A stretch of DNA of 64,000 bases, from NCBI GenBank assembly GCA_951406725.2, contig OX597838.1:23808001-23872000 (forward strand), in the 5' to 3' direction. Both the position numbers and the translations under genes were made by a program. Positions 14,432-62,139 of this stretch are shown here, piece by piece; the stretch's first letter is position 1, and each line of letters opens with the position of its first letter. Origin of the DNA: Octopus vulgaris. Taxonomy: Eukaryota. The notes beneath the pieces are model-generated. The model was not told the origin of the DNA, did no database searches, and saw only the letters and a program-made list of their open reading frames with translations.

Positions 14432-14612
14432 AATAATAATAATAACATCGAAAAGTACCTTAGGAATGAGAACCCAGGTTTGAAATTTCCCCAAGACACC
14501 TGATGTAAGCTGGAGGGTACATCAGCTGAAACATTGTGTTAACAACAAACAAGATGAGGACAAATATCCGTCAATAATGTACATAATTCCTCATCTCTTA
14601 AATATAGGACTG
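14432..14612 (+). mobile_element. Family B element body, 5'-truncated at (AAT)n
   Basis: Colinear with the reverse complement of 17787-17970. Confidence 0.7.
14495..14540 (+). ncRNA. Degenerate type I hammerhead, same family as 17876-17921
   Basis: gacac-CTGATGT-aagctg(gagggtacat)cagct-GAAAC-att-gtgtt; A9 is mutated. Confidence 0.55.
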
Positions 14613-14627
14613 AATCATTAGCATGTA

Positions 14628-14777
14628 GGCATAGGAGTGGCTGTGTGCTTACCAACCACATGGTTCTGGTTTCAGTTCCACTGCATGGCACCTTGGGCAA
14701 GTGTCTTCTACTATAGCCTCGGGCCGACCAAAGCCTTGTGAGTGGATTTGGTAGACGGAAACTGAAAGAAGCCCGTC

Positions 14778-14819
<42 letters not shown>

Positions 14820-15041
14820 ATGTGTGTGTGTGTGTATGTTTCTGTGTCTGTGTTTTTACTCCCACCATTGCTTGACAACCGATGCTGGTGTGTTTATGTC
14901 CCCGTAACTTAGCAGTTCAGCGAAAGAGGCCGATAGAATAAGTACTAGGTTTACAAAGAATATGTCCTGGGGTCGATTTGCTCGACTAAAAGGCAGTGCT
15001 CCAGCATGGCTACAGTCAAATGACTGAAACAAGTAAAAGAG
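14628..15041 (+). mobile_element. SINE S1
   Basis: Full head/microsatellite/tail layout ending gactgaaacaagtaaaagag. Confidence 0.8.
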
Positions 15042-15633
15042 TATGTCGAAGGAAATGCTGAGGGCGTTTCTTCCAACTCTACATTCTGAGCTCAAATACC
15101 ACTGAGGTTGACGTTGGCTTTCATCCTTTCATGGTTTGATAAAATAAGGTCAAGTTGAGCACTGGGGCCGGTGTAGTCAACTAGTCACCCTCCCAACAAA
15201 CTTCAAACCTTGTGCCTATCATAGAAACGATATTACTGGCCACATCTCGAATGTTTCTTTTTAAAGAAACCAACAAAGAAATCTCTGTTCCAGTAGGTTG
15301 AGCAATAAATATAATCATCAATGTTTGATGAAATTAAATAAATAGCTAAACAAAATCTTTCCCCAAACAATAAAAACAGGAAATTGATGATTGACAAAAG
15401 TATATTGTAACCGTTCTGAATCCAAGCCAAAACAATAATGACTTTTGCTCAGTTATTGGAGAAAAAAAAAATCCATAAATTTATAGGGGGGTGGAAGGTA
15501 GGGGGATACAAGGATTGTATAATTTGATATATGCATACATATACATACCTACATATATATATATATATATATATATGTACTCACAAACACATACATATAC
15601 ACAATAGATATATATATATATTATGCATATCTG

Positions 15634-15697
<64 letters not shown>

Positions 15698-15708
15698 TAT
15701 ACATATAT

Positions 15709-15743
<35 letters not shown>

Positions 15744-16359
15744 CACCTACATGTATATACATACACATACATATTCATATATATACATACACACACACAT
15801 ATATATGTTTATATATATATATTTGATTAATGAGAGAGATGGAAGATAAGAGAGAATGTTTATTAATCACTACAATTCTATTTTCCATCTCTCTCATTAA
15901 TCAAATACCCAATGAACTCTGAAAGTGAACGTGCTTTACCAGTAACTACCAGGTGTACACCATACGATTTATTATCTAATAATATATAAACTAATACACC
16001 TGTTTGTTATTCCTACACCTATCTTTGTCTTTTGTAAATTTGAACTATATATATATATATATATATAGTTTAGAACATGTATTCATAATGATGTATATTG
16101 TATATGGTGATTGACGATTTAAAGTCTATTTCTCAGCATATTGGCATAGAAATTGTTTCTTTTGCCCTGAAATTTGTGGGGAGAGGACTAGTCGATTACA
16201 TCAACCCCAGTGTTTCACTGGTACTTAATTTATCGACCCCAAAAGGATGAAAGGCAAAGTCAACCACAGCGGAATTTGAACTCAGAATGTAAAAGACAGA
16301 TGAAATACTGCTAAACATTTTAGTCAGCATGCTAACGATTCTGCTAGCTCACTGCCTTC

Positions 16360-16394
<35 letters not shown>

Positions 16395-16669
16395 TATAAT
16401 CTTTTCTACTAAAGATACAAGGCCTGAAATTTTTGGGGAGGGGTAAGATGATTACATCGACCCCAGTGTTTCATTGATGCTTAATTTATTGACCCCCGAA
16501 AGGATTGAAAGGTGTTATATCTTCAGTGACAATATATAGCATGTGTGTGCGTGTGACAATATATCACAGTATCAAATATAACCGTATAACAATAAGCAAT
16601 GGTTATCTTATTATAACCATTTGCACAATAACAATCCAAGACTCCAAGAATCGAAATCAAATTCAATGA

Positions 16670-17127
16670 CTGGCATCCGTGCTAGTGAAGCGCTAAGAGT
16701 ACCATACGAGTGAGATCGTTGCCAGAGCAACAAGCTGGCCTCCGTACCGATGGCACGTAAAAAAAACACCATTCGAGCGTGATCGTTACCTGCGTTGCCT
16801 TACTGGCACTTGTGCTGGTGGCATGTGAAAAAACATTCGAGCAAGGTCGTTGCTAGTGCCCCTGGACTGGCTCCTGTGCAGGTGGCATATAAAAAGCACC
16901 ATTTGAGCATGGCCGTTGCCAATACCGCCCGACTGGCCCTCGTGCCGGTGGCACGTAAAAGCACCCACTACACTCTTGGAGTGGTTGGTGTTAGGAAGGG
17001 CATCCAGCTGTAGAAACTCTGCCAGATCAGATTGGGTCTGGTACAGCCATCTGGTTCACCAGACCTCAGTCAAACAATTCCAACCCATGCTAGCATGGAA
17101 AGCGGACGTTAAACGATGATGATGATG
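16670..17127 (+). mobile_element. SINE-like family S3 (internal tandem units, (GAT)n tail)
   Basis: Repeated gccggtggcacgtaaaaagcacc units, ending aagcggacgttaaacgatgatgatg. Other copies at about 11190-11410, 22928-23330(-), 34228-34558(-), 37885-38108, 42615-42937, 49045-49330(-), 55085-55375 and 61838-62025(-). Confidence 0.75.
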
Positions 17128-17388
17128 CTGACTCCAATGCAGAATCAATAACAAGACTAACACCCTCACAGATTAACCTCAACTAAGGCTTGTCCAATCC
17201 ACTGACAGTTATGTGTGAGAGGGTGTCACTTCATTTGACAAGAAAAGGCAAAGTCGACCTCAGTGGAATTTGAACCTAGAACATTAAGATGAACGAAATG
17301 CTGCTAAGCATTTTACCTGGTGTGCTAACGATTCTGTCAGGTCACAGCCTTAAAATAAAAGAAAAATGATAATGGAAAAAAGGCTCAC

Positions 17389-17658
17389 GTTTTACATTCC
17401 CGATGCCATTTTTATCACCAGTTCTGTTGGAATGTGTATTCTCTGGTCCGCCATTCAAACATCGGAAGTCACAGCAAGCATTCTCAACAGTTTTGATCTT
17501 CATGCAGGCTGGAGGAGAACAAAGGACCATGTTACACATGATGTGTAGACCGTTCTGGCACATACAAGACCGACACGGCTCATCTTTATCGGGTGTGTAT
17601 TCGTCACCGTTGGACACGATGTTCCCCTCCCAGTCACGGCATGGCAAACTGGAGACAC
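17389..17658 (-). CDS. DGCR2: VWC (von Willebrand factor C) domain exon of the DGCR2-like gene
   Basis: Bounded by tttctcttccag| and |gtgagc; 270 nt, phase 1-1. VSSLPCRDWEGNIVSNGDEYTPDKDEPCRSCMCQNGLHIMCNMVLCSPPACMKIKTVENACCDFRCL shows VWC cysteine spacing (CxxCxC...C...C...C...CC...C). Confidence 0.9.
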
Positions 17659-17786
17659 CTGGAAGAGAAAGATAAATTGATTTAGACAGATAGAAAGAGA
17701 TAGAGATATAGATAGATAGATAGACAGACAGACAGTTGGATAGATAGATATAGAGATAAAGATAGATAGATAGACAGACAGACAAT

Positions 17787-17968
17787 ACAGTTCTATATTT
17801 AAGAGATAAGGAATTATGTACGTTATTTACATTATTTACATTTGACAGATATTTGTCCTCATCTTGTTTGTTGTTAACACAGTGTTTCGGCTGATATACC
17901 CTCCAGGCTTCTTCAGGTGTCTTGGGGAAATTTCGAACATGGGTTCTTATTCCTAAGGTATTTTTCGA

Positions 17969-17999
<31 letters not shown>

Positions 18000-18092
18000 G
18001 TTGTTGTTTTTTGTTGTTTATGTCACTGCTTGGAATCGAACTCGGAATCTTGGGGTTAGTAGCCCACACTCTTAACCACTATGCCATATGCC
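17787..18092 (-). mobile_element. tRNA-headed SINE-like element carrying a hammerhead (family B)
   Basis: Minus strand: A-box-like ggcatatggcatagtggttaa and B-box gagttcgattcc head (18092-18020), an (AAC/AAT)n linker, then a ~180-bp body shared with 14441-14612. Confidence 0.7.
17876..17921 (-). ncRNA. Degenerate type I hammerhead in a tRNA-headed element
   Basis: Minus strand gacac-CTGAAGA-agcctg(gagggtatat)cagcc-GAAAC-act-gtgtt. Stem I is gacac/gtgtt; the cleavage-site U is mutated. Confidence 0.6.
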
Positions 18093-18362
18093 CGTGGGCA
18101 ATTATGGAGTGAATTTTAGGGCTTTCTTCTGACTCTTGGTTCTTTACATTTTGAGTTCAAATTCCACAGAGTGTGACATTGGCTTTCATCCTTTTGGGGG
18201 TCGATTAAATAAAACACAAATTGAGCACTGCAGTCGGTGTAATTGACAATCCACCTTTCCTCGGAGTTGCTGGCATTACGCCAAAATTTGAAACCATTAT
18301 TATTAGTAATAGCATGAGACAACAAAGGAGAAACAAAAATCTCTCTCACTCTAGATATATAC

Positions 18363-18396
<34 letters not shown>

Positions 18397-18899
18397 CATA
18401 TATATAAGGAAACAACAAACCAAAAAGTTGAATCATTGTGCACTGATGTATAAAGGTATAGATAAGGATGTAAATGACAGGAAAGTTAGAAATAAAACCA
18501 ACTCAAAGACCAAAATGGAACCTGCCCTCACCTCACGCCAATAGCTGAGAGAGAGAGGAGAGAGAGGGAGACTTCTTGGTAGTTAGTAAAATACAGCAAA
18601 ACTGAACAAAGAGGAAGTAATCCAATATGAAAGACAGACAATTGCTGAAAAAGCTTTGAAATAAAAGACCAGGAATGGAAGGTCTGATTTTAGCTGCCGT
18701 AAGATCAATGCCACGGCTAGATCAAAAACGACCAAAATAAAATGAGCGGTTAGCATCAAACTGTAGACTATGCAGTCAGAATAAATATATATAATTGGCC
18801 AAACCATTCTTAGCCGCAAAGAAAGAATATAGACACTGGCATGATTTGGTGGGGTGAGCGGGGAGAGTGGTTATGGCCACTGAGTAAATGGTTCTCTAT

Positions 18900-20298
18900 G
18901 AATTTTGGTACAAAGCCAGTGATTTTGAAGGGGTGAGGAATCAATTACATCAACCTCCACCCCAATGTTAAGCTGGTACTTTATTTTATTGACCCCCCCC
19001 CACTGAAAGAATGAAAGGCAAAGGTGGGATTTGAACTCAGAATGTAAAGCCAGAAGAAATGACCCTAAGTATTTTGTCTAACATGCTAATGTTATTTCTT
19101 TATTGCCTACAAGGGGCTAAACATAGAGGGGACAAACAGGGACAGACAAAGGGATTAAGTCAATTACATCGACCCCAGTGCGTAACTGATACTTATTTAA
19201 TCGGCCCTGAAAGGATGAAAGGCAAAGTCAACCTCGGCGGAATTTGAACTCAGAATATAACAGCAGACGAAATACCTATTTCTTTATTACCCACAAGGGA
19301 CTAAATATAGAGGGGACAGACAAAGGGATTAAGTCAATTACATCGACCCCAGTGTGTAACTGGTACTTATTTAATCGGCCCTGAAAGGATGAAAGGCAAA
19401 GTCGACCTCAGTGGAATTTGAACTCAGAATATAACAGCAGATGAAATACGGTTAAGCATTTCGCTCGGCGTGCTAACGTTTCTGCCAGCTCACCACCTTA
19501 ACATGCTAATGTTTCTGCAAGCTTATCGCCTTAACAACAACAACAACAATAATAATAATAGTTTCAAATTTTTGGCACAAGGCCAGCAATTTTGGGGAGG
19601 GAGTAAGCTGATCATGCTGGCTCCAGTGCTCAACTGGTACTTATTTTATCAACCTCAAAAAGATGAAAGGTGAAGTCAACCTCAGCAGAATTTGAATAAC
19701 AATAATAATAATGGATTCAAATTTTGGCACAAGGCCAGCAATTCCAGGGAGGGATGAGTCAATTCCATCGACCCCCAGTGTTCCACTGGCACTTATTTTC
19801 TCAGCATAAGAAGGATGAAAGGCAAAGTTGACCTTGGTGGAATTTGAACTCAGAACATAGTGACAGGCGAAATACTGCAAAGCATTTTGTCCAGCGTGCT
19901 AACAATTTTGCCAGCTCGCCACTTTAAATAATAATAATCCTTTTTACTATAGGCACAAGGCCTGTAGTAACTGGTACTTATTTCATTGACACCCCCCCCC
20001 CCCCCCCGAAGGGTTTGAAAGGCAAAGTCGACCTAGGCGGAATTTGAACTCAGAATGTAAAGACAGACAAAATACCTATTTCTTTGCTACCCATAAGGGG
20101 CTAAAATACAGAGAGGACAAACAAGGACAGACAAACAGATTAAGTCGATTATATCGACCCCGGTGCGTAACAAGTACTTATTTAATCGACCCCGAAAGGA
20201 TGAAAGGCAAAGTCGACCTTGGCGGGATTCGAACTCAGAACGTAACAGCAGATGAAATACCGCTAAGCATTTCGCCCAGCGTGCGAACGTTTCTGCCT
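18900..20298 (-). mobile_element. SINE S2 cluster including tandem multimers
   Basis: About seven S2 units, with fused junctions near 19275 and 20075. Confidence 0.75.
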
Positions 20299-20300
20299 TT

Positions 20301-20342
<42 letters not shown>

Positions 20343-20577
20343 CCTTTCTACTATAGACACAAGGACTGAAATTTTGGGAGAGAGGTTTAGTTGATTTCAT
20401 TGAATCCAGTGCTTGAAGAGATGAAAGACAAAGTCAACGTTGGTGAAATTTAAACTCAAAACACAAAGAAGAATTACTCCTGAGCCTTTTGTTCAACATA
20501 CAAGAAATTTTGCAAGCTTGCTGCCCTCAAGCCATGAGTAATATGTAAATACATTCTTTTGTTTTGATTAATACCTT

Positions 20578-20942
20578 TTTACCTCCGCCATAGCGAAGGC
20601 GGAGGTATTGTTTTCATTCGTGCTTTTTGGTTTGTCCGTGGACAAGATATCTTAAGAACTGCTGGATGGATTTGGATGAAACTTGCAGAGATGTTTGGCC
20701 TCATGACTGGCATGAACTGATTAGATTTTAGGATCGATCTGGTAACAGACAAGGATTCTGGATAATTTTCCATTTATTTTACTTAATTTTTGAAAGTGAT
20801 CGGGTTCATTTTTAGTATTCTTGTTTGTGAGAGCGGTCAAGTTTATTTCAGATATTCTCATTTTAAAAATCATCTCTGGCTAATCGTTGAGAGGACATTG
20901 GTGTTGCCTTGGCAGAGGTTTGCACTCTGAGCACTCTTGTTT
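20578..20942 (+). mobile_element. Helentron-associated (HINE/DINE-like) non-autonomous element; fragment at about 11705-11842 (-)
   Basis: 5' hairpin tacctccgcc-atagcgaa-ggcggaggta, subterminal inverted ccttggcagaggt near the 3' end, T-rich flanks. Confidence 0.55.
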
Positions 20943-21252
20943 TACCTCTTTATTTTTGTCCATGCTTGCATGGATGGGATAGCAAAGATAGGAATTGATT
21001 TAAGAGCAGGATCTTATGGTCAGATGCTGTTCCTGTTGCCAACTCATACTCGGTCATAGAGTCATAGAGTGACTTGTTATAATATCAACAAGGAATGCTA
21101 ATATCAGCATCACAATCAATTCGCTTAAATGGCGACAAGTAACACATCAACATTCACACAAATTTACACACAGACTTATTTACACACTATTATCTATAAC
21201 TCTATGTACTTCAATTTCAAGGGTTAAAAGCAAATTTCAAATGTATGTGCTT

Positions 21253-21293
<41 letters not shown>

Positions 21294-21592
21294 CACACAC
21301 ACACAAATATATATACATGTATGCACACACTCACCTACATACATATATATTCATATATACATACATACATCACCACACATACATGTATACACACACACAT
21401 ACATACCTAGTTATATACAAATATAAGCACACAAGTACCAACTACAGCATGTGGTAATGACACAACTATGCTACTCTGGAATTAATGACTCTCAGAATGG
21501 CAAGCACATCCAAAAGAAGCCATTCTGGTACCACAATCAAAGATAGAAAAGGTAAAAAAAAAAAAGATCCTCACACACACACACACACACAC

Positions 21593-21644
<52 letters not shown>

Positions 21645-25361: not shown

Positions 25362-25398
<37 letters not shown>

Positions 25399-31004: not shown

Positions 31005-32070
31005 GGCAGGCCCGGAAGAAAAAGAGGAAACAACAAAAGCTGTAAAATAAGTGAAATCCAAACTAAAACTGGAACGACGAAGTATCATGATAAAACAATG
31101 GCAAGAAAAGCCCTTACATGGCAAATACTGGGATAAGCTAAACAGAAAAGAAATAGACAAAGTAAAAACCCAATAATGGCTGAGAAGCTCAGGACTCAAA
31201 GAAGAAACTGAAGGATTTTTTTTTTTATTGCAGCACAAGATCAAAACCTCCCCACCAGAAACCATCAGAAACATATAATGAAGTAAAATACAACTGCAGA
31301 ATATGTGGTGATGGGGAAGAAACGATAAATCATATTGTCTCTGGCTGCCCAGTCCTGGCTAAGAAGGAATATATTCACAGACACGACAGTTATCATGAGA
31401 TGAACCTCTCATATTGACTTATAGTGTATATAAGCACTCGTTTTTATATCGCTGGCGGGAAGTACTCGTCTGATACCACAGCTGAAACTGCCATTTTATG
31501 TGGTTTCGGCTTTCCTTGGTCTTGCAATAGTAACAAATCCTCCATCAGCGATATACATAGAATCTCAGATTCTAAGAAGGAATATATCCACAGACATGAC
31601 AGACCTATATACACTGGAAGCTATGCCAACACTATGGAATAACAAGAGAAAAATGATGGTATAAGCACACGCCAGAAAGCATCACAGAAAATGACAAAGC
31701 AGCCACACTCTGGGATATGTCAATACACACAGATAGAGAAATCAAGGCTAATAAGCTGGATATAGTTGTCAGAGATCACCAAGGAAAAAAAAAAATGCCT
31801 TCTAATTGATGTACCGATCCCAACAGATGGTAATCTATCTCTAAAAGATATGGAGAAACTCTCAAAATACAAAGATCTGGAAATAGAGATAACCCAAATG
31901 TGGAGCCTAAGAACAGAAACAATCCTTATAATAATAAGTGCATTAGATATGATTGAAAAGCATTCAGACAAATACATGACCAAAACGCCAGGACTTTACA
32001 AATGTATATAACATACAGAAAATAGAACTTCTAGGCACACATCTTACATAGCACTTTCAATACAGTGAAA
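31005..32070 (+). pseudogene. Degenerate R4/Dong-like non-LTR retrotransposon 3' ORF (zinc knuckle plus restriction-like endonuclease)
   Basis: CRICGDGEETINHIVSGCPVLAKKEYIHRHD followed by DIVV..CLLIDVPIPTDGNLSLKDMEKLSKYKDLEIEITQMW, with frameshifts and stops. Confidence 0.8.
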
Positions 32071-32758
32071 ATAAGAGCACCACAATAAACCATACACACA
32101 CATACCCAAGGCAGTTTAGTCAGAAAGATTGAACTAAACCACAGCCAGATGACAGCTGGTAAGCCAAAACTTCAAAGTCACTGTCAGTTTTTTTCTTGTA
32201 AAAATTAATGAAATATGTTTGTTCCTTCTCGAGCCATGCCTGGCTCATAAGGGCTGGTTTATTCATATATGGGCTGGTTTATTCATCAACTTTTTCAAGT
32301 TTCACTTGAAAAGGAAGTTGAGGATGGAGAGGGAACTGTTACCTTGTATTTTGTCTGTCTTTAATTTGTTCCTTGGCGTATAAGTTCCCCACCTGGACGG
32401 GACACCGGTCCGTCACAGGTGAGCTGCAAGATGCAGGAGGAAAGAGAGAGAGAAAGTTGTAGCAAGTCAGCAGAAGTTCGCCCTTATCTTCTGCCAGAGC
32501 CATGTAGAGCTTAGGTGTTTTGCTCATAAACACACACATCGCCTGGTCTGAGATTCGAACCTGCGATCCCTCGACTGCGAGTCCACTGCTCTAACCACTA
32601 GGCCATGTGCAATGAAATATGTAGTTGAGTAAAAAGTACAGTGATCCTTCCGTTTAACACTTGATTGTTTTTATATATAACTTAACATAAAAACAAATAT
32701 TAAAATTTTATATATATCTATTTTGTTTCAAATTTGTGTGAATGTGTATAGAATAATA

Positions 32759-33254
32759 TATTAGTAGAATAAAGTTAAAACATAGTCTGGTTTTCACGCT
32801 TTTCATTATGGCATTTTAACAAAATTAGCGCTTTCATACATAGAGTACTCATCAGATTTCAAATGTATTTAAATGACAGTTGAGTTCTTGACAACCTTAG
32901 AATGCTTCAACCAGCTCACTTTTTAGAATACCATTTTGATCAATCTGCATGCTCTTCAACATCGCGGTTTGTCAGGTGTACCAATATTCTGTGAATTGTT
33001 TAGATTTATTAATCCACATCATTAACTGGTTGTTATATTATTGCTTGTTATTTCCGTTTTGAGCAGGTTTGAACATTTTAATAAACCGTTTTTCTTTTAT
33101 CTGTCTTCCAACCTCACCTGTGTCGTGTCGTTTGTGGAAAGGAAAAATTAAAAACATTTTCTGAGTACACTATGTATGAAAGTGCTAATTTTGTTAAAAT
33201 ACCATAATAAAAAACGTGAAAACCAGACAATGTTTTAACTTTATTCAACTAATA
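32759..33254. mobile_element. Fold-back element or MITE with ~93-bp imperfect TIRs
   Basis: tattagtagaataaagttaaaacatagtctggttttcacg...gagtactca pairs with tgagtacactatgtatgaaag...tgttttaactttattcaactaata. Confidence 0.75.
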
Positions 33255-33358
33255 CTTATATACATAAAGATAGGATAAAGTTCATTTCCAAGTCATGTAG
33301 ACTCATAGGGCCAGTTTTCCCACCTGGATGGAATGTAGATATACATATATATATATAT

Positions 33359-33540
33359 ATAGATCGTTAGCCACTACACACATTTTTTTCTCTCCTTGTT
33401 TTTTCTGTGTACATTTCTGTAGAAGAGCGTAGGCTTGAAACGTAAAATACTTTTTCTATTCCTGAGCGCTATACTAATACATCTGTTTGTTTTATACACC
33501 ACCTGTCTTCGTCTTTTGTTTTTTTACGTAAACTTTCCCT
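33359..33540 (+). mobile_element. Family A element with hammerhead-like motif
   Basis: attt-CTGTAGA-A-GAGC(gtag)GCTT-GAAACGTA-aaat at 33413-33448; flanked by (TA)n on both sides. Confidence 0.65.
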
Positions 33541-33780
33541 ATATATATATTATTTTTTAAAAAAATATATGCTTAGCTTTTAAAAAAATTCTTGACACTC
33601 CCACAATATCTGACGAAAGATTTTCTTAAATGAAATTATTAATTTTATAAAAAAGTAACAAAATGACACAAACCTACAGAAAGAATTTTTTGCATCATGT
33701 TGTGCTTTTCGCTGTTTTCAGCTTCTCAAATGTGTTACAAGGTAATCTGTTTAGACACAGTTTATATTATTATTATTATA

Positions 33781-39269: not shown

Positions 39270-40045
39270 GTAGTTTACCACCATCATAGTAAGTACATCA
39301 CAACTTTATGACATCTTAATCTACAGCTGTAGTAATCATGTTATGACAAAAAAAAAAACCCATCATATTACAGCACACTATGACATATCTTAATCTATAG
39401 ATAAGAAACTAAAGTCATCATGGCATGGCTGAACAATACATCACATCACAACATACTATGACACATCTTAGTCTACATCTAAGACAGTAAAGTCATCATG
39501 TTATGACTAAACACCATCACATCACAACATACTATGACACATCTTAGTCTCTAGATAAGGCAATAAAGTCATCATGTTACGACTAAACACCATCACATTA
39601 CAACATACTATGACACTTAGTCTACAGAAAAGACAGTAAAGTCATCATGTTACAACTAAACACCATCACATCACAGCACACTATGACACATCTTAATCTA
39701 CATCTAAGACAGTAAAGTCATCATGTTACGACTAAACACCATCACATCACAGCACTCTATGACACATCTTAGTCTATAGATAAGGCAATAAAGTCATCAT
39801 GTTTATGACTAAACAACATCACAGCACAGCAAACTATGACATCCCATAATCTATAGTTAAAACAATAAAGACGCCATGTTATGACAGAACAACATTTACA
39901 TTACAGCACAATTACATCATGACATCGCAAAGCCTATGGGCAAACCACGAAAGTCATCACGCTATGACTGAACAACATCACATCACATCACAGCACAGCA
40001 GACTATGACATTACATAATGTATGGTTGAGACACTGAAAGACTAT
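39270..40045. repeat. ~76-bp minisatellite, about 10 copies
   Basis: agtcatcatg recurs at 39413, 39491, 39567, 39640, 39716 and 39792. Confidence 0.9.
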
Positions 40046-42965: not shown

Positions 42966-43176
42966 TTCAAAATGTGACCGCGTGTGTACTGTTGGCGATT
43001 TTTTTTCCTCCATCTTCCCTTCTCTGGATCTTTCCTTTTCCTATGTTTCTGACGAAGAGCTCCGCTCGAAACGTAAAACCCTCCTTCTTCCCTTCCTTCC
43101 TGAGCGTCCAATAATACTATATTTGTTCCACATCCTCGCGTAGTTGTGTTTTCTCTTGGTGTTTTCATGTTTGGAT

Positions 43177-43180
<4 letters not shown>
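42966..43180 (+). mobile_element. Family A-related element with an intact hammerhead, inserted in (TA)n
   Basis: TA repeats on both sides. Shares AGAGC..GCTCGAAACGTAaaa and ttcctgagcgt with family A. Confidence 0.65.
43045..43079 (+). ncRNA. Minimal type I hammerhead ribozyme with intact core
   Basis: gttt-CTGACGA-A-GAGC(tcc)GCTC-GAAA-CG-TA^-aaac: stem I gttt/aaac, stem II GAGC/GCTC, palindromic ACGT stem III, GUA cleavage triplet. Confidence 0.8.
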
Positions 43181-44526: not shown

Positions 44527-44626
44527 TCACTGCCTGGAATCGAACTCAGAATCTTGGGGTTAGTAACCTGTGCTCTTAACCACTACGCCATATGCCATAA
44601 CTCTTCATCTCTTAAATATAGAACTG
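44495..44626. mobile_element. Rearranged family B element: tRNA head (minus) fused to an inverted 3' tail fragment
   Basis: 44521-44596 matches the 18020-18092 head. 44597-44626 (tcatctcttaaatatagaactg) matches the family B 3' end in the opposite orientation. Confidence 0.55.
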
Positions 44627-45669
44627 AAAACCAATTTCCCCTACCATCGCTTGACAACTGGTGTTGGTGTGTTTACATCTCAGTAACTTAGCAGTTCGGC
44701 AAAAGGAAACAATAAAATAAATATAAGCTTTAAAAAAATGTCCTGGGGTCGATTTGTTCGACTAAAACTCTTTAAGGCAGTGTCCTAGCATAGCCATAGT
44801 CAAATGACTGAAAGAAATAAAAGATAAACGATATGATGATGGAATGTTAAGAAAGGGGGGACCCCTACCCAACTTCAAATAAAAATAAACATGGCTATCG
44901 TCACTGGTGTCACTGTGTGGTAAGAAGTTTGCTTCCCAACCACATGGTACAAGGTTCAGTCCCACTGTGTGGCACTTTGGGCAAGTGTCTTCTACTACAG
45001 CCCTAGGCTAACCAAAGCCTTGTGGGAAGATTAAGTCAATGGAAACTGAAAGAAGCCCATCATATACAAGTATGTATGTATGCCGGAGTGGGAGCTCCTC
45101 ACCACCTGGTTTCTAAGGAGAGTCAATTCGGCTCAGGATGGAAATAAAGCAGGTAAAAGACCACATGTTGAGCAGTAGTGGGATTATGCCTGTTTGATAC
45201 AACTGAAAACTAATTTCCTTTTGACTGGGTGCCCCAGCATGGCCACAGCCTTAGGGCTGAAATGTATAAAAGAATATGTATGTGTGCATGTCTTTGCGCT
45301 TGTGTCGTAGTTGCCCTCTACCACCATTTGTCAACCGGTGCTGGTTTGTTTACGTCCCTGTAACGTAGTAGTTCAGCAAAAAAGACTGATAGAATAAGCA
45401 CCAGACTTCAAAAAAGTAAAAAATAAAGAGAATAAAACAGAAAGAAAGAAAAGAAAAAAAAGAACAAAAAACAGTTCTGGAGCTGAAGTCAATTCGTTTG
45501 AATAAACCCTTTGAGGTATTGCTCCAGCACGGCCACAGTTCAATGACTGAAACATGTAAAAAAAATAAAATGACAGAAGTCAATATGCATTTATACACAT
45601 ACACACCAGCACATAAACACACAGCGAGGGCCTCTTCAACACACATATATATATATATATTATCATAAG

Positions 45670-47979: not shown

Positions 47980-48355
47980 CAATGAAGAATAGTCTGTCAT
48001 CATCTAGGAAAGTGCTAAAGGCACCTCTCTTTGTGTCATTGTGTAGAAGTTAGGTCATCATGTGGACATGGTTAGATAATTCCTGAAGGATCTTTTGCTA
48101 TGGAAGAAATGATCTGATTGTTGGACATCCAAGACTGTGACAACTAGGGATTTAAAGAATATTGGCAAGTTACATGGGAAACCTGGCCAAACAAGCATAG
48201 CCATTTTCCCTGCCTCCAAACATCCTCATGTACCGAAAACCACCAGAAATCACATTCTTGGGACCATGGCTTCCATGCAAGAACCCCTGAAACTACCTTC
48301 TTTAACGCCCCATCACATGAGTTTGAGGCTTCAATGGGCCCAAAAGTACATGACA
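47980..48355 (+). pseudogene. Tc1/Tc3-like transposase relic (N-terminal HTH region)
   Basis: PLKLPSLTPHHMSLRLQWAQKYM resembles the Tc1-family 'KP.LT..H...RL.WA' motif; truncated at TA repeats. Confidence 0.55.
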
Positions 48356-51300
48356 TATATATATATTTTTCACTGTGTGTAGTTCAGTTCCTTCTTCAAA
48401 TTTTTCACTGTGTGTAGTTTTCCATTTTGACACTCCTACGAGCATTCGTAACCTCATTACCACTGTTATAACGACACCGTTATATAGTGGGAGGTATCTT
48501 CATCGCCATTGATATGTCCTGCATTATGACGACATAACTTCATCATCTGCATGACTGGCCCATATGGTGTACCTCGCTGACTGACCCTGCTTGCTGTGTC
48601 TATCCAGTATTTATCAGTAGTGGAACAGCCCACTTCTCACTTGGGGGTGTCCGCCACAACAAGTATTCAAAGATATCCCGATATATCTTCAATATGATCA
48701 GCCAAATTATGTCTGACAGCTGATACTTGTACAGGGGCTTTCTAAAGCCAACTATATGGTTAATACCCAAACTGAATTGATGTTTGTGTGTGTGTGAGAC
48801 CCTTGTTTTGACATCATCTGATGGTTGTAAACAAATGTTGCTGTCAAACAAGCGATGTTGTTTGTTTTCAGTCTCCCGTGTAAAACATGTCTGGCCATGG
48901 TAAAAATACTTTATTTGGAAGCAAGTGAAGGTTGGTTTCAGGGAGGGCATCCAGCTGTAGAAAATCTGTCTCCATGAACTCTGTCTGCTCCATGCAAGCA
49001 AAAATGATGATGGTACATATAGATGTGTGTGAATACATATATCATCATCATTATCTAGCATCCATTTTCCATGTTGGCATGGGTTAGATAGTTTGGCTAG
49101 AATTAGTAAGCTGGAAGGCTGCACCAGGTTCCAATCTAATTTGGCATGCTTTCTACAGTTGGATGCCCTTCCTAATGCCAACCACTCCACAGAGTGTAGA
49201 GGGTACCTCTTATGTATCACCAGCACAGGTGCCTTTTACATGTCACTGACACAGATGGTTTTTATGTGCCACCTGCACGGGTGCCTTTCATGTGTCACTG
49301 GCACCAGCCACAACTACCATTCCACTTGGCTTGATAAGTCTTCTCAAGCACAGCAAATTACCAACAGCCTCCATCTCTTGTCATTGCCTCCATGAGATCC
49401 AGTGTCCAAAGATCATGCTTCACCACCTTGTTCCATGTCTTCTTGGGTCTATCTCTTCCACAGGTTTCCCTCTGTAGTTAGGGACCGGCACTTTGAGAGG
49501 AAATGCATTTATAAATGATTATGTCGCATAAACAACATACATACATGATCATTCTTTCTCTCTCACACACCTGAAAAGAGACTGACACATATCAAGAGAC
49601 ATCATATATACACATCGACCTCCAAAGGTAGACGGATTCGGTCATAATAGAGAGAGGCCACAATGGTTTATCTAGTAACCAAAGTAACCGAAGAGGGATT
49701 GGTAGAGAGATGTGGGGATGAAGATGGTATGGAGAGCAAGAAAGAGGTGGCAGCAATGATTTGACTATAGAGAGAGGGGGAGGGAAGAGTGAGAGAAGGA
49801 AGACAAGGGAGAAGAGAGAAAAGAAAGACAAGAAAGGTGGAAGAGAGATAGAAACACAGAAAAATTGAAAGAAATAAGTGGGAGAGAGAGAGAGAGAGAG
49901 CAAAGACTGTAAAATTATATAAATACACATACATACACATATATATGTACACAATGCACACACACACATATATATATATATAAATAAATATATATAAACA
50001 CACACATATACATATATATATATATATAAACACACACATATACATACACACACACATATACATACGCATATATATATACACACACATTCACTCACACACA
50101 TACTTATAGATATACTCAATACACACACACGTATATATAAAAATACACAATACACATATGCATATATATACACACACATGAGAGGTAGAAATAGATAGAT
50201 ATTGAGAGGGAGAGAGGAGTGGTAGAAGGCTGCAGCCAGAATCAGAAAATAGTTGAATAATATAGTTGTAAGTATTCTTCCTTTGTCAATGTTTAAAGAA
50301 TAACAGAATCAACAGAATATCAGAACGTTCTGACAACAACAACAACAAATTGAATTATAGAATGGCAAAAACGGCAGAATGGCAAATAAACAAATAAATA
50401 AAAATGGTAATAATAAATAAATAAATGAGTGAATCATTTTAATTTGACAATGTAGACATTATATTTGGCAAACAACAAAAGAGATGTACACAAGCTCTTT
50501 AATAGCACTTGTCTAGACTGGAGTACCTTCTTGAAGAAATACAAAGACCGAGAGAGGCAGGCTGGCAATGTGTCTATGTTTATATGATGTGAATAAATAT
50601 CTTTATTATTAAGACAGAGGCGCAGGCATGGCTGTATGGTTAAGGAGCTTGCTGCCCAGCTGTGCAGTCTTGGGTTTGATCTCACTGTGCAGCACCTTGG
50701 GCAAGAGTCTTCTACTGTAGCCTTAGGCCAACTAATAACCTTATGTGTGGATTTGGTAGGCAGAATCTGAAAAACAAGCCTGTTGTGTGTGTGTGTGCGT
50801 GTGTACACACACACACATGTATGTATTTGTTTTGCAAGATTCCCGATGTGAAATCGTGTGTTGAAACATTGTTATATTTTGGGATGAGAAACAAAAATAA
50901 AAAAAAAAAACATCCTAAAATATAACAATATATATGTATTATTCTTATACAAGAATGTTGTCGACAGTGACTTCGAAGTTTCAGATAGCCTAGCTGGCTG
51001 AACATATAATATATATATGTGTGTATATCACGTGACCGACCAGACCATCAGATGTTGTTACACATCGCTGGTCACAATGCATTTGCATTGTTTTAGCCTT
51101 CAAATGACGCCACCCCACTGGCTAAGCGAGCAGGCCAACAGAAGAAAGAGTGGTGAAAGAGTACAGCAGGGATCACCACCCCCTGCCGGAGCGTCGTGGA
51201 GCTTTTAGGTGTTTTCGTTCAATAAACACTCACAACGCCCGGTCCAGGAATCGAAACCGCGATCCTACGACCGTGAGTCCACTGCCCTAACCACTGGGCC

Positions 51301-51692: not shown

Positions 51693-51723
<31 letters not shown>

Positions 51724-54664: not shown

Positions 54665-54711
<47 letters not shown>

Positions 54712-54925: not shown

Positions 54926-56064
54926 ATACTTTGTTGTTTGTAAATAATTTTTTTCTTATATACACACACAACTTGCTTGGTCCCTGGGATGGGGTGGGGT
55001 AGAGAAATGAGGAGGGTAGTCATGGGATGTTGCTAGAAACAATAGTGAAATCTCCTTTGAGTCACACACCTTTTCATAAAAAGCTCCATCCGAATGTGGT
55101 CAATGCCAGCCCCCCACCCTGACTGGCTCCTGTGCTGGTAGCATACAAAAAGCACCATCCGAATGTGGCCGATGCCATCTAACTGGCTCCCATGCTGGTG
55201 GCATGTAAAAAGCTTCCACTACACTCTGAGAGTGGTTGGCGTTAGGAAGGGCATCCAGCTGTAGAAACATTGCCAGTTCAGGTTGGAGCCTGGTGCGGCC
55301 TTCTGGCTTGCCAATCCTCAGTCAAACTGTCCAACCCATGCCAGCATGGAAAATGAATGTTAAACAAAGATGATGACAGAGTCTACTGGTCAAACTAGGT
55401 TTTGACAAGCAGTGTCAATACACTTTAATGCTATGCAAACAGTCACGGCAGCCTCTTTATATTGACTTAGTGCTTCCGTGAAATATCGTGGTCAGAATCA
55501 TCAATGGCTGTACTGAATTTGAGGAAAATTATTCTTTCTTATGGTATAAAAATCTTGAAGAAAACATGTTCTTTTCAAAGTGAAAATTAACGATAAAATT
55601 TTCACTTAATATATTTCATAACAATTATCTGACCTACCTCCATCGATTTTCATATCAAAATAAAACAAAAAATGTCCTTATTGATTTTTATATCAAAATA
55701 AAACAAAAAAGTCCTTTTCATGGTCGTATCATTTTCAACACAAATCAGGTAGTAGTGCTCCAGTGCACTGAACTAGAATAAGAGTTACTGTTCAGCAGTC
55801 AAGAGCAAAAATGGGCAGGACGAACGTGAGTGGTTAGGGCATCAGGCTTACAATTATGAGGTTATGAGTTTGATTCCCAGACTGGGCTGTGTGTTGTGTT
55901 CTTGAGCCATACACTTTATAAGGGTGATTGAGGGGACCTTTCCTGATATGTAAGTGTCAGATTTTGATCAAAAGTATATGAGAAGGAAGTTCACATCCAA
56001 AACTTTCAAATGAGATATAATTGTCCATGGAACAAAAAAATTTGTTTTGACATGAAAATGATTA

Positions 56065-56459
56065 TAGGCACGGGAGTGGCTGTGTGGTAAGTAGCTTGCT
56101 TATGAACCACATAGTTCCGGGTTCAGTCCCACTGCGTGGCACCTTGGGCAAGTGTCTTCTACTATAGCCTCGGGCCGACCAAAGCCTTGTGAGTGGATTT
56201 GGTAGACGGAAACTGAAAAGAAGCCCATCGTGTATATGTATATATATATATGTGTGTGTTTGTGTGTCTGTATTTGTCCCCCCAACATCGCTTGACAACT
56301 GATGCTGGTGTGTTTATGTCCCCGTAACTTAGCAGTTCAGCAAAAGAGACCAACAGAATAAGTACTAGGCTTACAAAGAATAAGTCCTGGGGTTGATTTG
56401 CTCAACTAAAGGTAGTGCTCCTGCATGGCCACAATCAAATGACTGAAACAAGTAAAAGA

Positions 56460-56460
<1 letters not shown>
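56065..56460 (+). mobile_element. SINE S1, full length
   Basis: Consensus-like. Confidence 0.85.
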
Positions 56461-56494
<34 letters not shown>

Positions 56495-56987
56495 TATATA
56501 TTTGAATTAAATAATGGAAGCAGCTCTACAGTAAAAATTCCATCAATATAACATCTTTAATGTATGTGTGTTGTTGAAACACCAGAAGCTGCAATTTTTC
56601 ATTGGGGAAAAAATCCTTTTATAGACATATTGTGTTAAAAAAAAAAAAGTATATATATATATTTCAAAGCCAGGTGAAATGAAATCATCCCAGAAGTGAC
56701 TGCAAGATCAACAGATACATATTTTGTGTTTGTAATAGTTTCTCAATCTCGCATTTCTCATGTCCCTTTCAAAATGAAATCGAATCAGCTGGTTTGCAGT
56801 ACATAGGGACAGGGGTATAAACTATATGCTGGTGTACGAAAGCACTGCACGAGCAAACTAAAAATCTGAATTATGCAATCAAAGCAGTTCCACAGCAAAA
56901 ACTATATCAATGCAACATACTCAATGTGTGTGTGTGTAGTTGAAACACCAGAAGCTATGGTTTTCATCAGGAAAAAAATCCATTTAT

Positions 56988-57370
56988 GGTAGTTAGTTAG
57001 TTAGTTAATTTGGCTCAAAAGCAAATAGCAAGGCCATGTAGGGGGACATGGAGTTAAGTACAGGGTGGTGTTCATGTAAAGAGTTCAGGCCACTTGAGGT
57101 CCAGGGAGGCTTTGAACAAAGCGGTCGTCGGCATCTTCACCATCTCATCTGGCAGCTTGTTCCACGGATCCGCAACCCGGACGGAGAAAGCTCCTCTCCT
57201 TCGATTGAGATGAAATCGTCGCAGGTAGAGCTTTTCGGAATGACCCCGCAGCCGACGCTCTGGAGCAGGAGTGAAGAACAGCTCTTTCGAGAGGTTACAT
57301 TTTCCGCTTATGATGTGGGCGAGAATGAGATCACTACGGCGGCGGCGTTTTTCAAGAGAAAAACACACTG
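56988..57370 (-). pseudogene. CR1-like LINE 3' end with (AACT)n tail
   Basis: LEKRRRRSDLI...RLRGHSEKL...FSVRVADPWNKLP...FKASLD is typical of a CR1-group ORF2 C-terminus. Confidence 0.8.
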
Positions 57371-57775
57371 TAAGTGGTGGGTGAATTTAGTTTCCATCTG
57401 TTGATCAGCAGTGATAGCATTCTTAAATATAATGCTTGGATGAGTGCAAAACCTGCTGCATGAAACCATTAATAGTGTTGTTAATTCACAAATAAAGAAT
57501 GAATATATTTAGATGACTATTTATGTGTGTGTGCATGTATGTATGTATATGTATAGAGTGCTAGGTGTGGTATACAAATATTGAATATTGAGAAAAAAAG
57601 GTCACCAGAATTTTGGAAAAGAATCTTTTCATTTATTCATTATTAGCGCTTTCGTTCGTTTCTCAAACTTGTTTGATAATTTCGGGAAACAAACAGAAAC
57701 GTTAATAATAATGAATAAATAAAAAGATCTTTTTCCAAACTTTGGTGACCGTGACCCTTTTGTCCGGCATTCGCC

Positions 57776-57957
57776 ATGATAGATTGTTAGCCACTACACA
57801 TTCTTTATTTTCTCTCCTTGTTTCATTTTGTGGAAGAGCGTAGGCTCGAAATGTTAAAGACTTTTTCACTTCCCAAGTGTTATACTAATACATCTGTTTG
57901 TTGTCTACACCACCTGTCTTCATCTTTTGTTTTTTTTTTTTAGTGAATTCTCCCCCT
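57776..57957 (+). mobile_element. Family A element with degenerate hammerhead-like motif
   Basis: atgatagattgttagccact...TTGTGGA-A-GAGC(gtag)GCTC-GAAAtgtt...; ends at (TA)n. Confidence 0.6.
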
Positions 57958-57982
57958 ATATATATATATTATATATATATAT

Positions 57983-58355
57983 TGTGGAGGCGCAATGTCC
58001 CGTTGGTTAGGGCAGTGGACTCGAGGTCGTAGGATCATGGTTTCGATTCCAAGACTGGGCGTTGTGAGTGTTTATTGAGCGAAAACACATAAAACTCCAT
58101 GGCACTCCGGCAGTGGGTGGGTGGCAAACCCTGCTTAACTCTTTCACCACAACTTTCTCTCACTCTTTCTTCCTGTTTCTATTGTACCTGTATTTCAAAG
58201 GGCCAGCCTTATCACACACCGTGTTATGCTGGATCTCCCTGAGAACTTCGTTAAGGGTACACATGTTTGTGGAGTGACAACCACTTGCACGAGCAGGCTG
58301 TTCTGTTGATCGGATCAACTGGAACCTTCATCGTCATAAGTGACAAAGTGCCACG
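57983..58355 (+). mobile_element. tRNA-derived SINE family S4
   Basis: A-box-like ggcgcaatgtcccgttggttaggg and B box ggtttcgattcc. Homologues on the minus strand at about 62207-62588, 51140-51313 and 32430-32610. Confidence 0.75.
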
Positions 58356-58605
58356 ATATATATACACACATATATATAAAATTAGTGTACAATTATACAC
58401 AAAAGAGGTGAGCCTAACAGGACACCTTACATGCTAAAAGGAGCAGTCAAAGTCCAAACCACGGTTAAGAGTAATTTCAAAGGAGCTGTTAGGCTCACAC
58501 CTTTTGTATATAAATGAACACTAATTTTATACAAAAAATATGTTGTCTATTGACTCTTTTATGCATACTAACTGGTAGAAAAATTTTTTACCCTATATAT
58601 AATTT

Positions 58606-58640
<35 letters not shown>

Positions 58641-59970
58641 GAGCAAAACGCCCCCTCCCCCCTCCAATGGACGGTGCTGAGTTGTCAAACATTTAAACCA
58701 AATTTTCTCAAAACAACTTGTCCGTCCGTCCCATAGGCCTCCCCTTTGAGAAACACTGATTTAACCTAAATCTGAGACACCAGCAAAAGAAGAAATAAAG
58801 ATAGACTTTTTTTCTATTCCAAAGAAAAACGATTTTATTCACATAAATATGCAACCAAAGAGTTTAAAGTACCAGTAATGATAAGGCTGTTGACTGGGAG
58901 AACACAAACATGGTTTAAACAGTAAGCTTGGCAGGAAAGAAACGTGCCTTTAAGCAGTACAAAAACAACAAAAAATGGAAGGTGCAGATATGTACAGGTT
59001 GACAGAAGAAAAGCAGGACAAAAACGGTTTTATCAAATATCAAATTTGAGCACAATCGGATGGAGGATGTCCGAGATCCTAGAAGACACACACTCAGACA
59101 GACAGAACGGATTTTATATAATGAATAAAGAAGATATGCCTAAATAAAACTCCTCCTGCAGATGTTTGCACATCTCCTGGCTTGACATCGCATGATTGCT
59201 GTAAACGAGAGTCATCGTCATGCAAGCATGTCCTTCGTTTCCAATCTTCTGTAAAAAAATATGTCTAGCTATGTGGTAATATCACCTTAATTGGAACAGG
59301 CAAATGTTGGCAACTAGATGGGCATCCAGGTGTAGAAAACCTGCCTCAGCAAATTCCATCTGACCCATGTAAACATGGAAAAATAGACATCAAAAATGAT
59401 TATGATGCAGTGTGTGTGTGTGTGTGTGTATGTGTGTGTGTGTGTGTATTATCGAGTTAGATAACAGTGAGATCTAATGCATACAAATTAAGTTAATTTA
59501 TAAATTAATTATTATCCATTAGATTACTCTGTTTCCTAACTTGATAATAATGTTTGGTATTTTATGATATTTTATGTAATATATTCATTGAAGAAATATC
59601 TCTTCAAAATATGATATATCAAACCAGGGTATCTTGGATAAAATATCCTTATAAGAGATTTAAATATTCTCATTGTGACTATACATATATATACACACAC
59701 ACACATATATATATATACATATGTACATACATATACAAATACATACATGCATACATATACAAATACATACATGCATACATATATATATACATACATACAC
59801 ACACAAACATATATACATATATATCTCTATATACATACACACATATAAACATATATACTTATATATATATACACGCATATAAACATGTATACATATATAT
59901 ATATACATACACATACAGATATAAACATATATATATATACACACACATATACATACATACATACAAACAC

Positions 59971-60005
<35 letters not shown>

Positions 60006-60008
60006 TAT

Positions 60009-60061
<53 letters not shown>

Positions 60062-60125
60062 CACAGATATTTAATATTCTATAGATTGATATTGAACCGT
60101 AAACAACTTCCCTCCTTGCATCTAT

Positions 60126-60178
<53 letters not shown>

Positions 60179-60628
60179 TTTATTTTTTTCATATTTTGCT
60201 TCGCAAAAGGAAACAGTGGCTCTCATTTCAGAAATATATAACATCATTGAGAAAGTTCAATACATCATTACAGCAGTGATTTCCAGCAGGGGATGTCATG
60301 ACACCCTAGTGTGCTGTAGACAGTTGTCAGGGGATGTCACAGGGTCTATATAACATAAATAACACAATTGACAACAGAGCATCAATAACAAGGGTGTCAT
60401 GTACCTTAGATGTAGAGAGGGTGATAGGGTAACAAGGTCACACAGACACCGGAAGCCAGTAACATTACCGTGGTACGTTGCAGTATTTCATTACATCTCG
60501 CTCTTTCTCTCTCAGTGTTGGATCTGTTCATGTATGTGTGCATATCTGCGTTGATGTATATATCTATAACTGTGTATGTGTATGTAAATATGCATACATT
60601 CATACATAAATGTGCTTATACACACACA

Positions 60629-60861
60629 CAGAGTGGGCCAAAAGTCACAAACCTGCACAGTTGGCATTTTATTCATATTACATTATTATTATTATTATTA
60701 ATGTGTAAACGCCCACACTTTATATCTGTCTTTGTATTGTCCCCTTCAATCTTGGCTCAGGTGTCAAATAAAAATAAATCATCATCATTATTATTATTAT
60801 CATTATCATTATTATTATTATCATTATTATAATCATTATCATTATTATTATCATCATTATT

Positions 60862-60893
<32 letters not shown>

Positions 60894-60993
60894 CATTATT
60901 ATAATCATTATCATTATTATTTTTATCATTATTATTATTATTATTATCATTATTATCATTGTCATTATCATTATTATTATTATCATTATCATT

Positions 60994-61031
<38 letters not shown>

Positions 61032-61190
61032 CATTATTATTATTATTATTCATTTTGCTTGTCATGTACATGTATGTGTGTGTTCATCGTTTTCTATTTG
61101 TTTTATTCAATTTTAGAAAAATTGAAGCAAGTCTTTGACGATTCCAGCGTATATTGAATTTATTTTGTGCATGACTTTTGGTTCACCCTG
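60629..61190. mobile_element. Tc1/mariner-type MITE containing a ~270-bp (ATT/ATC)n tract
   Basis: cagagtgggccaaaagtca ... tgacttttggttcaccctg|ta. Confidence 0.6.
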
Positions 61191-61314
61191 TATGTGTGTG
61201 TATATGTGTGTGTGTGTGTGTTGCACATGTATTCTCATACTCTACCTATCTATATCTATAAATTGATAGAGATACATATGTATATATATATATAGATGCA
61301 TACATACAGATAGA

Positions 61315-61645
61315 GGCACAGTCGTGGTCATGTGGTAAGAAGCTTGCTTCCCAACCACATGGTTTTGGTTTCAGTCCCACTGTGTGGCACCTTGGGCAAG
61401 TGTCTTCTACTATAGCCTTGTAAGTGGATTTGGTAGACAGAAAGTGAAAGAAACCTGTCATGTGTGTGTGTGTTTCTGTGTCTGTCCTCCCAACATCGCT
61501 TGACAACTGATGCTGGTGTGTTTATGCCCCCCCATAACTTAGTGGTTCAGCAGAAGAGACCAATAGAATAAGTAGTAAGTTCCTGGGGTCAGTTTGCTCG
61601 ACAAAAGACAGTGCCCCAGCATGGCCACAGTCAAATGACTGAAGC
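61315..61645 (+). mobile_element. SINE S1
   Basis: Consensus-like. Confidence 0.75.
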
Positions 61646-61654
61646 AAAATAATA

Positions 61655-61696
<42 letters not shown>

Positions 61697-62096
61697 AGAC
61701 AGAAAATGGAGAAATACTGATGAACAACAATTGACTTACATCATGTTCATCCTTGTCTTCACCTATAATTTATGAGCATAATATGCTTGCATATGTATGC
61801 CCATGGTTAAACATAGGTAATATACCAGTAGTGTAATCATCATCATCATCGTTTAACGTCCGTTCTCCATGCTAGCATGGGTTGGACGGTTCGACCGGGG
61901 TTCTGGGAAGCCAGAAGGCTGCACCAGGCCCCAGTCTAATCTGGCAATGTTTCTACAGCTGGATGCCCTTCCTAACGCCAACCACTCCATGAGTGTAGTG
62001 GGTGCTTTTTACGTGCCACCTGCACCTTCTATCCCTTAGATGGTTATTTTAACCTCTAACTCAGCTAACTTTATATATTGTCAGAATGATGTAGAC

Positions 62097-62139
62097 ACCT
62101 CTGATGAGAACCCAATAAGGTTTGAAAATTGATTAAGGT
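62097..62139 (+). ncRNA. Minimal type I hammerhead ribozyme with intact core
   Basis: acct-CTGATGA-gaacc(caataa)ggttt-GAAA-attgat-TA^-aggt: stem I acct/aggt and a 5-bp stem II. The stem III region AATTGATT is one transition from the palindrome AATCGATT. Confidence 0.75.

Follow-up and report, generated by a model that had tools for sequence, protein, structure and literature searches.

Minimal type I hammerhead ribozymes are known from the pseudo-long terminal repeats (pLTRs) of metazoan Penelope-like elements (PLEs), where according to Cervera and de la Pena (2014, PMC4209133) they mostly occur as single motifs, probably in truncated PLEs, and in some cases as opposite-strand pairs 100–700 bp apart. 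Such hammerheads in PLE ends are an ordinary class, present by the thousands in many animal genomes; their function in PLEs has been called unclear (PMC8557442). The survey covers the molluscs Lottia and Crassostrea, and no cephalopod name was found in those of its supplements that were searched (one file excepted). For the giant squid 235 Rfam hammerheads are reported as a count only (PMC6962438), and PMC8967140 makes no mention of hammerheads. Octopus vulgaris is reported to contain 190 PLE families, which account for 6.83% of the genome and of which 31 were recently active (PMC13282606). Here we describe hammerhead motifs in a 64,000-nt stretch of the O. vulgaris genome (contig OX597838.1, positions 23,808,001–23,872,000, hereafter the window). 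We suggest that the motifs probably mark pieces of PLE pLTRs of several families, namely solo or 5′-truncated ends and fold-back stumps, and that some of these pieces have perhaps been amplified as short non-autonomous units.

The intact motifs of the window and those published in PMC4209133 are alike in their short stem I, the CUGANGA-H core, the G10.1–C11.1 pair, the GAAA and the palindromic stem III. In addition, two of our groups (A and D) have the U-rich 5′ flank, and the motifs are dispersed and mostly single, with some opposite-strand pairs, as in the published cases. The window thereby adds cephalopod examples to the known class of PLE-end hammerheads.

Hammerhead motifs and their core states

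An initial annotation of the window had listed eight hammerhead or hammerhead-like motifs and had ascribed to all of them the full pattern stem I–CUGANGA–stem II–GAAA–palindrome–UH–stem I. All eight were found again at the same positions and on the same strands, and in a part-by-part parse only two of the eight (43045 and 62097) comply with this pattern, so that the idea of eight intact ribozymes is not supported. Motif D (43045–43079, plus strand) has the core CUGACGA and is intact in every part. Motif C (62097–62139, plus strand; core CUGAUGA) is likewise fully intact and occurs once in the window; the limits of its surrounding element were not found. A third intact motif, absent from the earlier list, is E1 (32855–32826, minus strand) with the core CUGAUGA at 32855–32849 and position 17 at 32826. 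In its broken partner E2 (about 33155–33192, plus strand), which had also been missed, small deletions have removed part of the core. Thus core CUGANGA, GAAA and UH are intact at 43045, 62097 and 32855 (minus strand) and not in the other six parsed motifs.

Four of these six belong to family A. Motif A1 (7991–8028, minus strand) has the core CUGUCAA with the changes A6U and G8A and position 17 at 7996, and both its stems I and II pair. Motif A2 (8184–8221, plus strand; position 17 at 8216) mirrors A1 and also carries A6U and G8A. Motif A3 (33413–33448, plus strand) reads CUGUAGA with A6U, and motif A4 (57824–57860, plus strand) reads UUGUGGA with C3U and A6U. Hence position 6 is U in 4 of 4 motifs from three insertions. 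The remaining two motifs belong to family B: copy 1 (14495–14540, plus strand) has the core CUGAUGU (A9U), whereas copy 2 (17876–17921, minus strand) has an intact core CUGAAGA and a C in place of U16.1. The palindromic segment 15.1–16.1 of stem III is ACGU in A1, A2, A3 and D, AGCGCU in E1 and AAUUGAUU in C, that is 4, 6 or 8 nt long; it is decayed in A4 and broken in both B copies (decayed in copy 1, lacking in copy 2). The sequences of stems I and II are unlike between the groups A/D, B, C and E and yet all of them pair in our parse. The intact motifs have G10.1–C11.1 and a short stem I of 4–5 bp, and groups A, B and D share an extra base after A9.

We compared the motif frequency with 30 dinucleotide shuffles in 500-nt blocks, using a descriptor that was composed with the motifs already known. 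With the exact core, 3 loci were found versus a shuffle mean of 0.03 (maximum 1); with one core mismatch allowed there were 4 loci versus 0.23, and with two mismatches 10 versus 2.1. A stricter pattern, based on the published consensus, had 1 match versus 0.02, and 2 of 100 shuffles reached 1. The motif frequency therefore exceeds that of shuffled sequence. Among the 150 of 195 Rfam matches listed for the window there was none to a hammerhead model, and two intact motifs scanned singly gave no hammerhead match either; these scans yielded only microsatellite-driven miRNA and snoRNA noise. The silence of the Rfam hammerhead models is expected, because the motifs are minimal forms. Minimum-energy folds of single motifs and of homodimers were mostly not hammerhead-shaped, and we used them neither for nor against our interpretation. 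In summary, the assignment to the minimal type I hammerheads known from PLEs is supported as a class, but most of the copies originally listed are broken.

Insertion anatomy and repeat families

The fold-back insertion of family A (7771–8472) interrupts the internal (TA)n run of a host short interspersed element (SINE). It is composed of a left arm of 323 nt (7771–8093, minus strand), a duplicated centre of 25 nt, which is a copy of the 5′ end between the arms (8094–8118), a right arm of 319 nt (8119–8437, plus strand) and a one-sided tail of 35 nt as in PLEs (8438–8472, plus strand), which is found at the right arm only and whose end is fuzzy within (TA)n. The arms are oriented 5′ end to 5′ end and differ by 2 substitutions in 319 nt (99.4% identity). 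The two halves of the SINE are 856 nt apart at this place, as compared to 34–94 nt in 8 of 13 other rows; in the remaining five rows the value is 266 or 662, very large (two rows) or missing (one row). Arms lying head to head, a duplication at the junction, a one-sided 35-nt tail and a (TA)n target are hallmarks of PLE insertions, and for PLEs the tail has been traced to two internal starts of reverse transcription (PMC11167929). If the arms were identical at the time of insertion, they would be about 1 Myr old at a rate of 0.0036 per Myr (PMC13282606). Since motifs A1 and A2 lie in the two arms of this single insertion, the eight motifs of the initial annotation are real and above chance but represent seven events. 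The stretch 8312–8472 extends about 130–160 nt past the usual 3′ end of family A and was seen in the window in this insertion only; it would be either part of a longer pLTR or flank that was carried along.

Altogether the motifs fall into five groups (A–E) of dispersed 170–350-bp repeats, which agrees with the earlier view of several families of elements of about 200 bp with no recognisable open reading frame. Family A comprises the four motifs in three insertions, which are 86–89% alike, and one 3′ fragment. The solo copy with A3 extends over 33359–33545 (plus strand) between two (TA)n runs, the solo copy with A4 over 57763–57960 (plus strand) and ends in (TA)n, and the fragment at 15988–16051 (plus strand; nhmmer E 0.0011) has no motif and also ends in (TA)n. 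Immediately upstream of the A4 copy a self-inverted 151-bp repeat (57600–57750, 76%) is found, which is similar to miniature inverted-repeat transposable elements. Family D is represented by one copy (42967–43180, plus strand) between two (TA)n runs and is a distant relative of family A (nhmmer with the A profile, E 1.1e-8). Thus (TA)n flanks both sides of the A pair, of A3 and of D. Family B consists of two copies that are 93% alike (14445–14612, plus strand, and 17788–17972, minus strand) and a 33-nt 3′ fragment (44596–44628, plus strand). Both copies follow an (AAT)n run on their 5′ side and start at the same base after it. Directly 5′ of the main motif both contain a second, relic hammerhead-like stretch (14455–14494, plus strand, and 17922–17962, minus strand); 22 of 23 bases of this stretch in copy 1 align to motif C with a score of 30, the best of 200 shuffles reaching 23. 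Family B may therefore carry two cores back to back. Group C is single.

Family E has two arms in head-to-head orientation, a left arm at 32722–32899 (minus strand) with the intact motif E1 and a right arm at 33004–33291 (plus strand) with E2, which are 92% alike over 117 nt. To look at other loci we aligned contigs of four runs on 32812–33560 at 80% likeness; the window perhaps derives from run X4, X3 comes from another sample, and X16 and X18 are RNA by guess only. The 5′ limit of the left arm was taken from contig joints and depth. Many contigs from other loci span 33004–33164, and 6 of the 15 joints listed (66 in total) link 32864–32899 to six points within 32967–33199. Both DNA-type runs contain these joints, each of which is seen in one or two contigs per run. 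Such variable joints fit a junction that is formed anew at each locus, and alignment artefacts are possible as well. Upstream of the motif the two arms are unlike (32873–32899, minus strand, versus 33004–33147, plus strand) and both sequences are high-copy. Each of them has an AG-ending stretch which could be a splice acceptor, and the difference would reflect either two subfamilies or spliced versus unspliced forms. A reading frame in the spacer was considered as a GIY-YIG tail and rejected: the weak likeness was lost when the contig majority letters were used.

Spread of the elements and alternative origins

The anatomy of the insertions suggests how the elements might have come about. A PLE protein with reverse transcriptase and GIY-YIG endonuclease, encoded elsewhere, would nick AT-rich or microsatellite DNA and copy the RNA, beginning at a point downstream of the hammerhead. 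Copying that terminated early would leave a remnant of about 200 bp with the motif in mid-element, fold-back at the 5′ end would give head-to-head arms, and two nearby start points would give a one-sided tail; the hammerhead would be carried along as part of the pLTR. We infer the participation of a PLE enzyme and of an RNA step. Correspondingly, the connection to PLEs that had been proposed for the window is upheld by the insertion anatomy and by the PLE share of the O. vulgaris genome, not by a partner reading frame.

Several points weigh against this interpretation. The window yielded no remnant of PLE coding sequence: among 150 of 373 complex frames there was no Penelope, RT-core or GIY-YIG match, and 123 of the 128 frames around the elements gave no such match either (Pfam). 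Because there is no PLE coding match in the window frames, no autonomous partner is tied to the element ends. By eye, the ends of the elements Naiad_Ovul and Naiad_Obim have no likeness to groups A–E. The one-sided tail is seen in one case only, and no convincing target-site duplication was found outside microsatellites. The fixed 5′ start of family B looks more like that of a defined short element than like random truncation, and the unlike sequences that precede the motif in the two arms of family E are not explained by a simple truncated-copy model. Finally, the fold-back at 7771–8472 could be a later duplication at the DNA level, and the A pair might represent a decayed copy that was carried along in trans.

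Family A is the commonest of the families and is probably present in 10^4–10^5 copies. The summed contig depth at 33436 is 3.4 and 3.6 million in runs X3 and X4 versus about 40–45 for the eight longest pieces per run; the ratio of near 80,000 is not a copy number and is inflated by overlapping short contigs. Scaling the three insertions in 64 kb to 2.8 Gb gives about 10^5. The high copy number asserted earlier is thus supported by contigs of other loci that match family A. The depth of family E is about hundredfold lower. In the contigs the majority letters repair the outer stem I pair of family A (C at 33413 in 95–99% and G at 33448 in 73–98%) as well as G10.1–C11.1 (C at 33436 in 91–98%). 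Position 6 (33420) is T and is not among the 40 of 93 variant places listed. In run X18 the sole place with a change from T to A is 33060, therefore A at 33420 stays below 10% in this run. There are 1, 2 and 4 T-to-A places for which no position is listed in X4, X16 and X3, respectively, and C or G at 33420 stays compatible with these data. As U6 is found in 3 of 3 independent insertions, it is most likely the family state. A search that requires CUGANGA accordingly misses the most abundant hammerhead-like repeat of the window.

As judged by their sequence, most of the copies in the window could not be normal ribozymes. Family A, with U6, is the most abundant, and its youngest insertion has G8A in both arms. 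This suggests that spread does not require cleavage. The description of the elements as ribozyme-processed is therefore not supported. It is also at odds with experiments on the anole PLE (PAc), the one PLE reconstituted in vitro: its hammerhead mutants are reported to insert normally, and no RNA reads are reported to end at the site (PMC11167929). Since family A seemingly spread without an intact core, cleavage would not be what mobilises the elements; we infer that it is dispensable. A more specific proposal, which we regard as tentative and rather doubtful, is that family A reached tens of thousands of copies while having U6 and keeping every helix and every other core base, and that a derivative without G8 was mobilised recently. 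If this holds true, the fold would have been kept for a non-catalytic job, for example to let RNAs dimerise by means of the palindrome or to be recognised by the PLE protein. A large family changed at core position 6 next to an intact sister family with A6 (family D) would then permit a natural, genome-scale test of the role of the hammerhead in PLEs. Against this, a single change in one master would leave the stems of family A intact without any selection.

The initial annotation favored short retroposons with an RNA that dimeric hammerheads excise and that is then circularised, as in animal retrozymes, and reinserted by PLE enzymes. The three intact motifs (43045, 62097 and 32855) could by their sequence cleave as dimers, animal retrozymes are reported to be related to pLTRs (10.64898/2026.07.22.740005), and the two B copies have a common fixed 5′ end. 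However, retrozymes are described as tandem repeats with canonical hammerheads (PMC7229834), and none of the 59 tandem-repeat rows of the window covers a hammerhead motif, which speaks against the supposed likeness to retrozymes. In addition, the motif lies in mid-element with sequence on both sides and not at an end or at a permuted junction, and the most abundant family is without A6; mutants of the CUGA turn had low activity in a full mutational scan of a type III hammerhead (PMC9901934). We therefore consider this model unlikely. Family A, and perhaps family B, might instead be SINE-like, derived from a pLTR and moved by other machinery such as that of a long interspersed element (LINE), the hammerhead being a relic of the master copy. 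The very high abundance, the narrow size, the simple-repeat ends and the family-wide A6U would agree with this, as would the richness of octopus in SINEs and LINEs (PMC13282606). On the other hand, no ordered pair of A-box and B-box was present on either strand of 10 element copies, no tRNA head was found in the elements, and the young A insertion bears the PLE marks of head-to-head arms and one-sided tail, making a SINE-like origin quite improbable. B-box-like words within A1 and E2 were dismissed as lone matches.

It could also be imagined that U6 is a working variant of the core and that family A cleaves slowly, as a dimer or aided by protein, with importance to the element. The contig majority letters which restore the outer stem I pair and G10.1–C11.1 indicate that the fold was kept, the natural A6C variant retains low activity (PMC3088659), and the PAc hammerhead is reported to cleave only in presence of protein (PMC11167929). 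Yet a single changed master that multiplied would also account for intact stems, the youngest insertion adds G8A, and changes of position 6 strongly lower the activity (PMC3088659; PMC9901934). A working U6 core is thus very unlikely. Chance look-alikes in AT-rich repeat DNA, finally, would account for the fact that 6 of the 8 listed motifs break the pattern, for the lack of Rfam hammerhead matches and for two-mismatch matches, of which there are about 2 per shuffle. This explanation is largely refuted and has hardly any probability left in view of the 3 strict matches versus 0.03, the paired stems of unlike sequence in four groups and the PLE-type anatomy.

Host gene and comparison with known systems

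With Octopus proteins, tblastn located a host gene with three exons on the minus strand (2030–17659): a cysteine-rich exon of the VWC type (17659–17387), an exon with a hydrophobic segment (10294–10163) and a long serine-rich last exon (5655–2030). As had been proposed, the motifs sit in introns of a host gene (three of them) or upstream of it, the others being located upstream of the VWC-type exon. For the frame 2030–5740 (minus strand) one protein cluster was found among 7,990 candidates, with members from O. sinensis, O. vulgaris and O. bimaculoides; the last exon has 0 mismatches in 1,206 residues to the proteins of O. sinensis and O. vulgaris and 21 to that of O. bimaculoides. The gene also bears PPPY-type motifs before about 1,200 serine-rich residues. 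The database names of the protein (serine-rich adhesin-like, mucin-5AC) look like low-complexity labels, and we presume a resemblance of the gene layout to DGCR2/IDD. RNA editing takes place in cephalopods. Within the host pre-mRNA the arms at 7771–8437, which lie in the last intron, would form a near-perfect 320-bp hairpin, which would hide the motif and offer a double-stranded target for editing. The window is rich in microsatellites and SINE-like repeats. It also contains a tandem array of 7.3 copies of a 76-bp unit that has no hammerhead core (39356–39910), a sub-threshold zf-RVT match (31184–31414, plus strand; Pfam, E 1.3e-4), probably the end of a LINE of the L1/Tx1 type, and a Tc1-type piece with a sub-threshold match to a Tc3-type transposase helix-turn-helix (48113–48379, plus strand; Pfam, E 1.6e-4).

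In a search from which Lunse et al. 2017, one supplement of PMC4209133 and a Zenodo repeat library stood apart, neither an A6U hammerhead nor a description of families A–E in the octopus or cephalopod hammerhead literature was found. Position 6 is A in all rows examined in Fig. S3 of PMC4209133, in contrast to the U of family A. The nearest case is the natural A6C core of phage Bcep176 with a kobs of under 0.1 per min (Perreault et al. 2011, PMC3088659); this is a single sequence, while here most members of a very large repeat family appear to have U6. The patterns of families A and B gave 0, 0, 0 and 1 matches in metagenome and viral contigs. Apart from the pattern itself, this lone contig match shares no similarity with the window, and the nine matches in prokaryotic genomes are all without the flanking motif and were rejected as chance.

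Animal non-LTR retrozymes are similar to the elements of the window in being non-coding, 150–450 bp long and PLE-related and in having a type I hammerhead (PMC7229834; 10.64898/2026.07.22.740005). They differ in that retrozymes are described as arranged in tandem and as having canonical ribozymes and circular RNAs (PMC7229834), whereas the window elements occur as dispersed monomers or as inverted pairs whose motifs are minimal and mostly broken. Of the dimers of Xenopus retrozymes, only one of nine was cleaved in vitro according to 10.64898/2026.07.22.740005. Naiad_Ovul and Naiad_Obim share with the window elements the host genus and the preference for (TA)n targets, but are described as without canonical hammerheads and as remnants in cephalopods (PMC8557442). 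Their 3′ ends contain CUGUUGA followed by CGAAAC about 35 nt further on, hence U at position 6, in stretches whose stems did not parse as a hammerhead by eye. Five short motifs searched in the Naiad supplement gave no octopus place among the matches listed, where line breaks may hide matches.

The units of endonuclease-containing (EN+) PLEs, that is Penelope/Poseidon, Neptune, Nematis and Hydra (PMC3846280; PMC8557442; PMC11167929), differ from the elements described here, as there is no open reading frame of such a unit in the window and the A pair has about 130 extra bases which other A copies lack. Nevertheless, the reported features of these PLEs recur at our locus: a head-to-head inverted pLTR with a palindromic or duplicated junction, a one-sided tail of 30–40 bp, and AT-rich or microsatellite targets.

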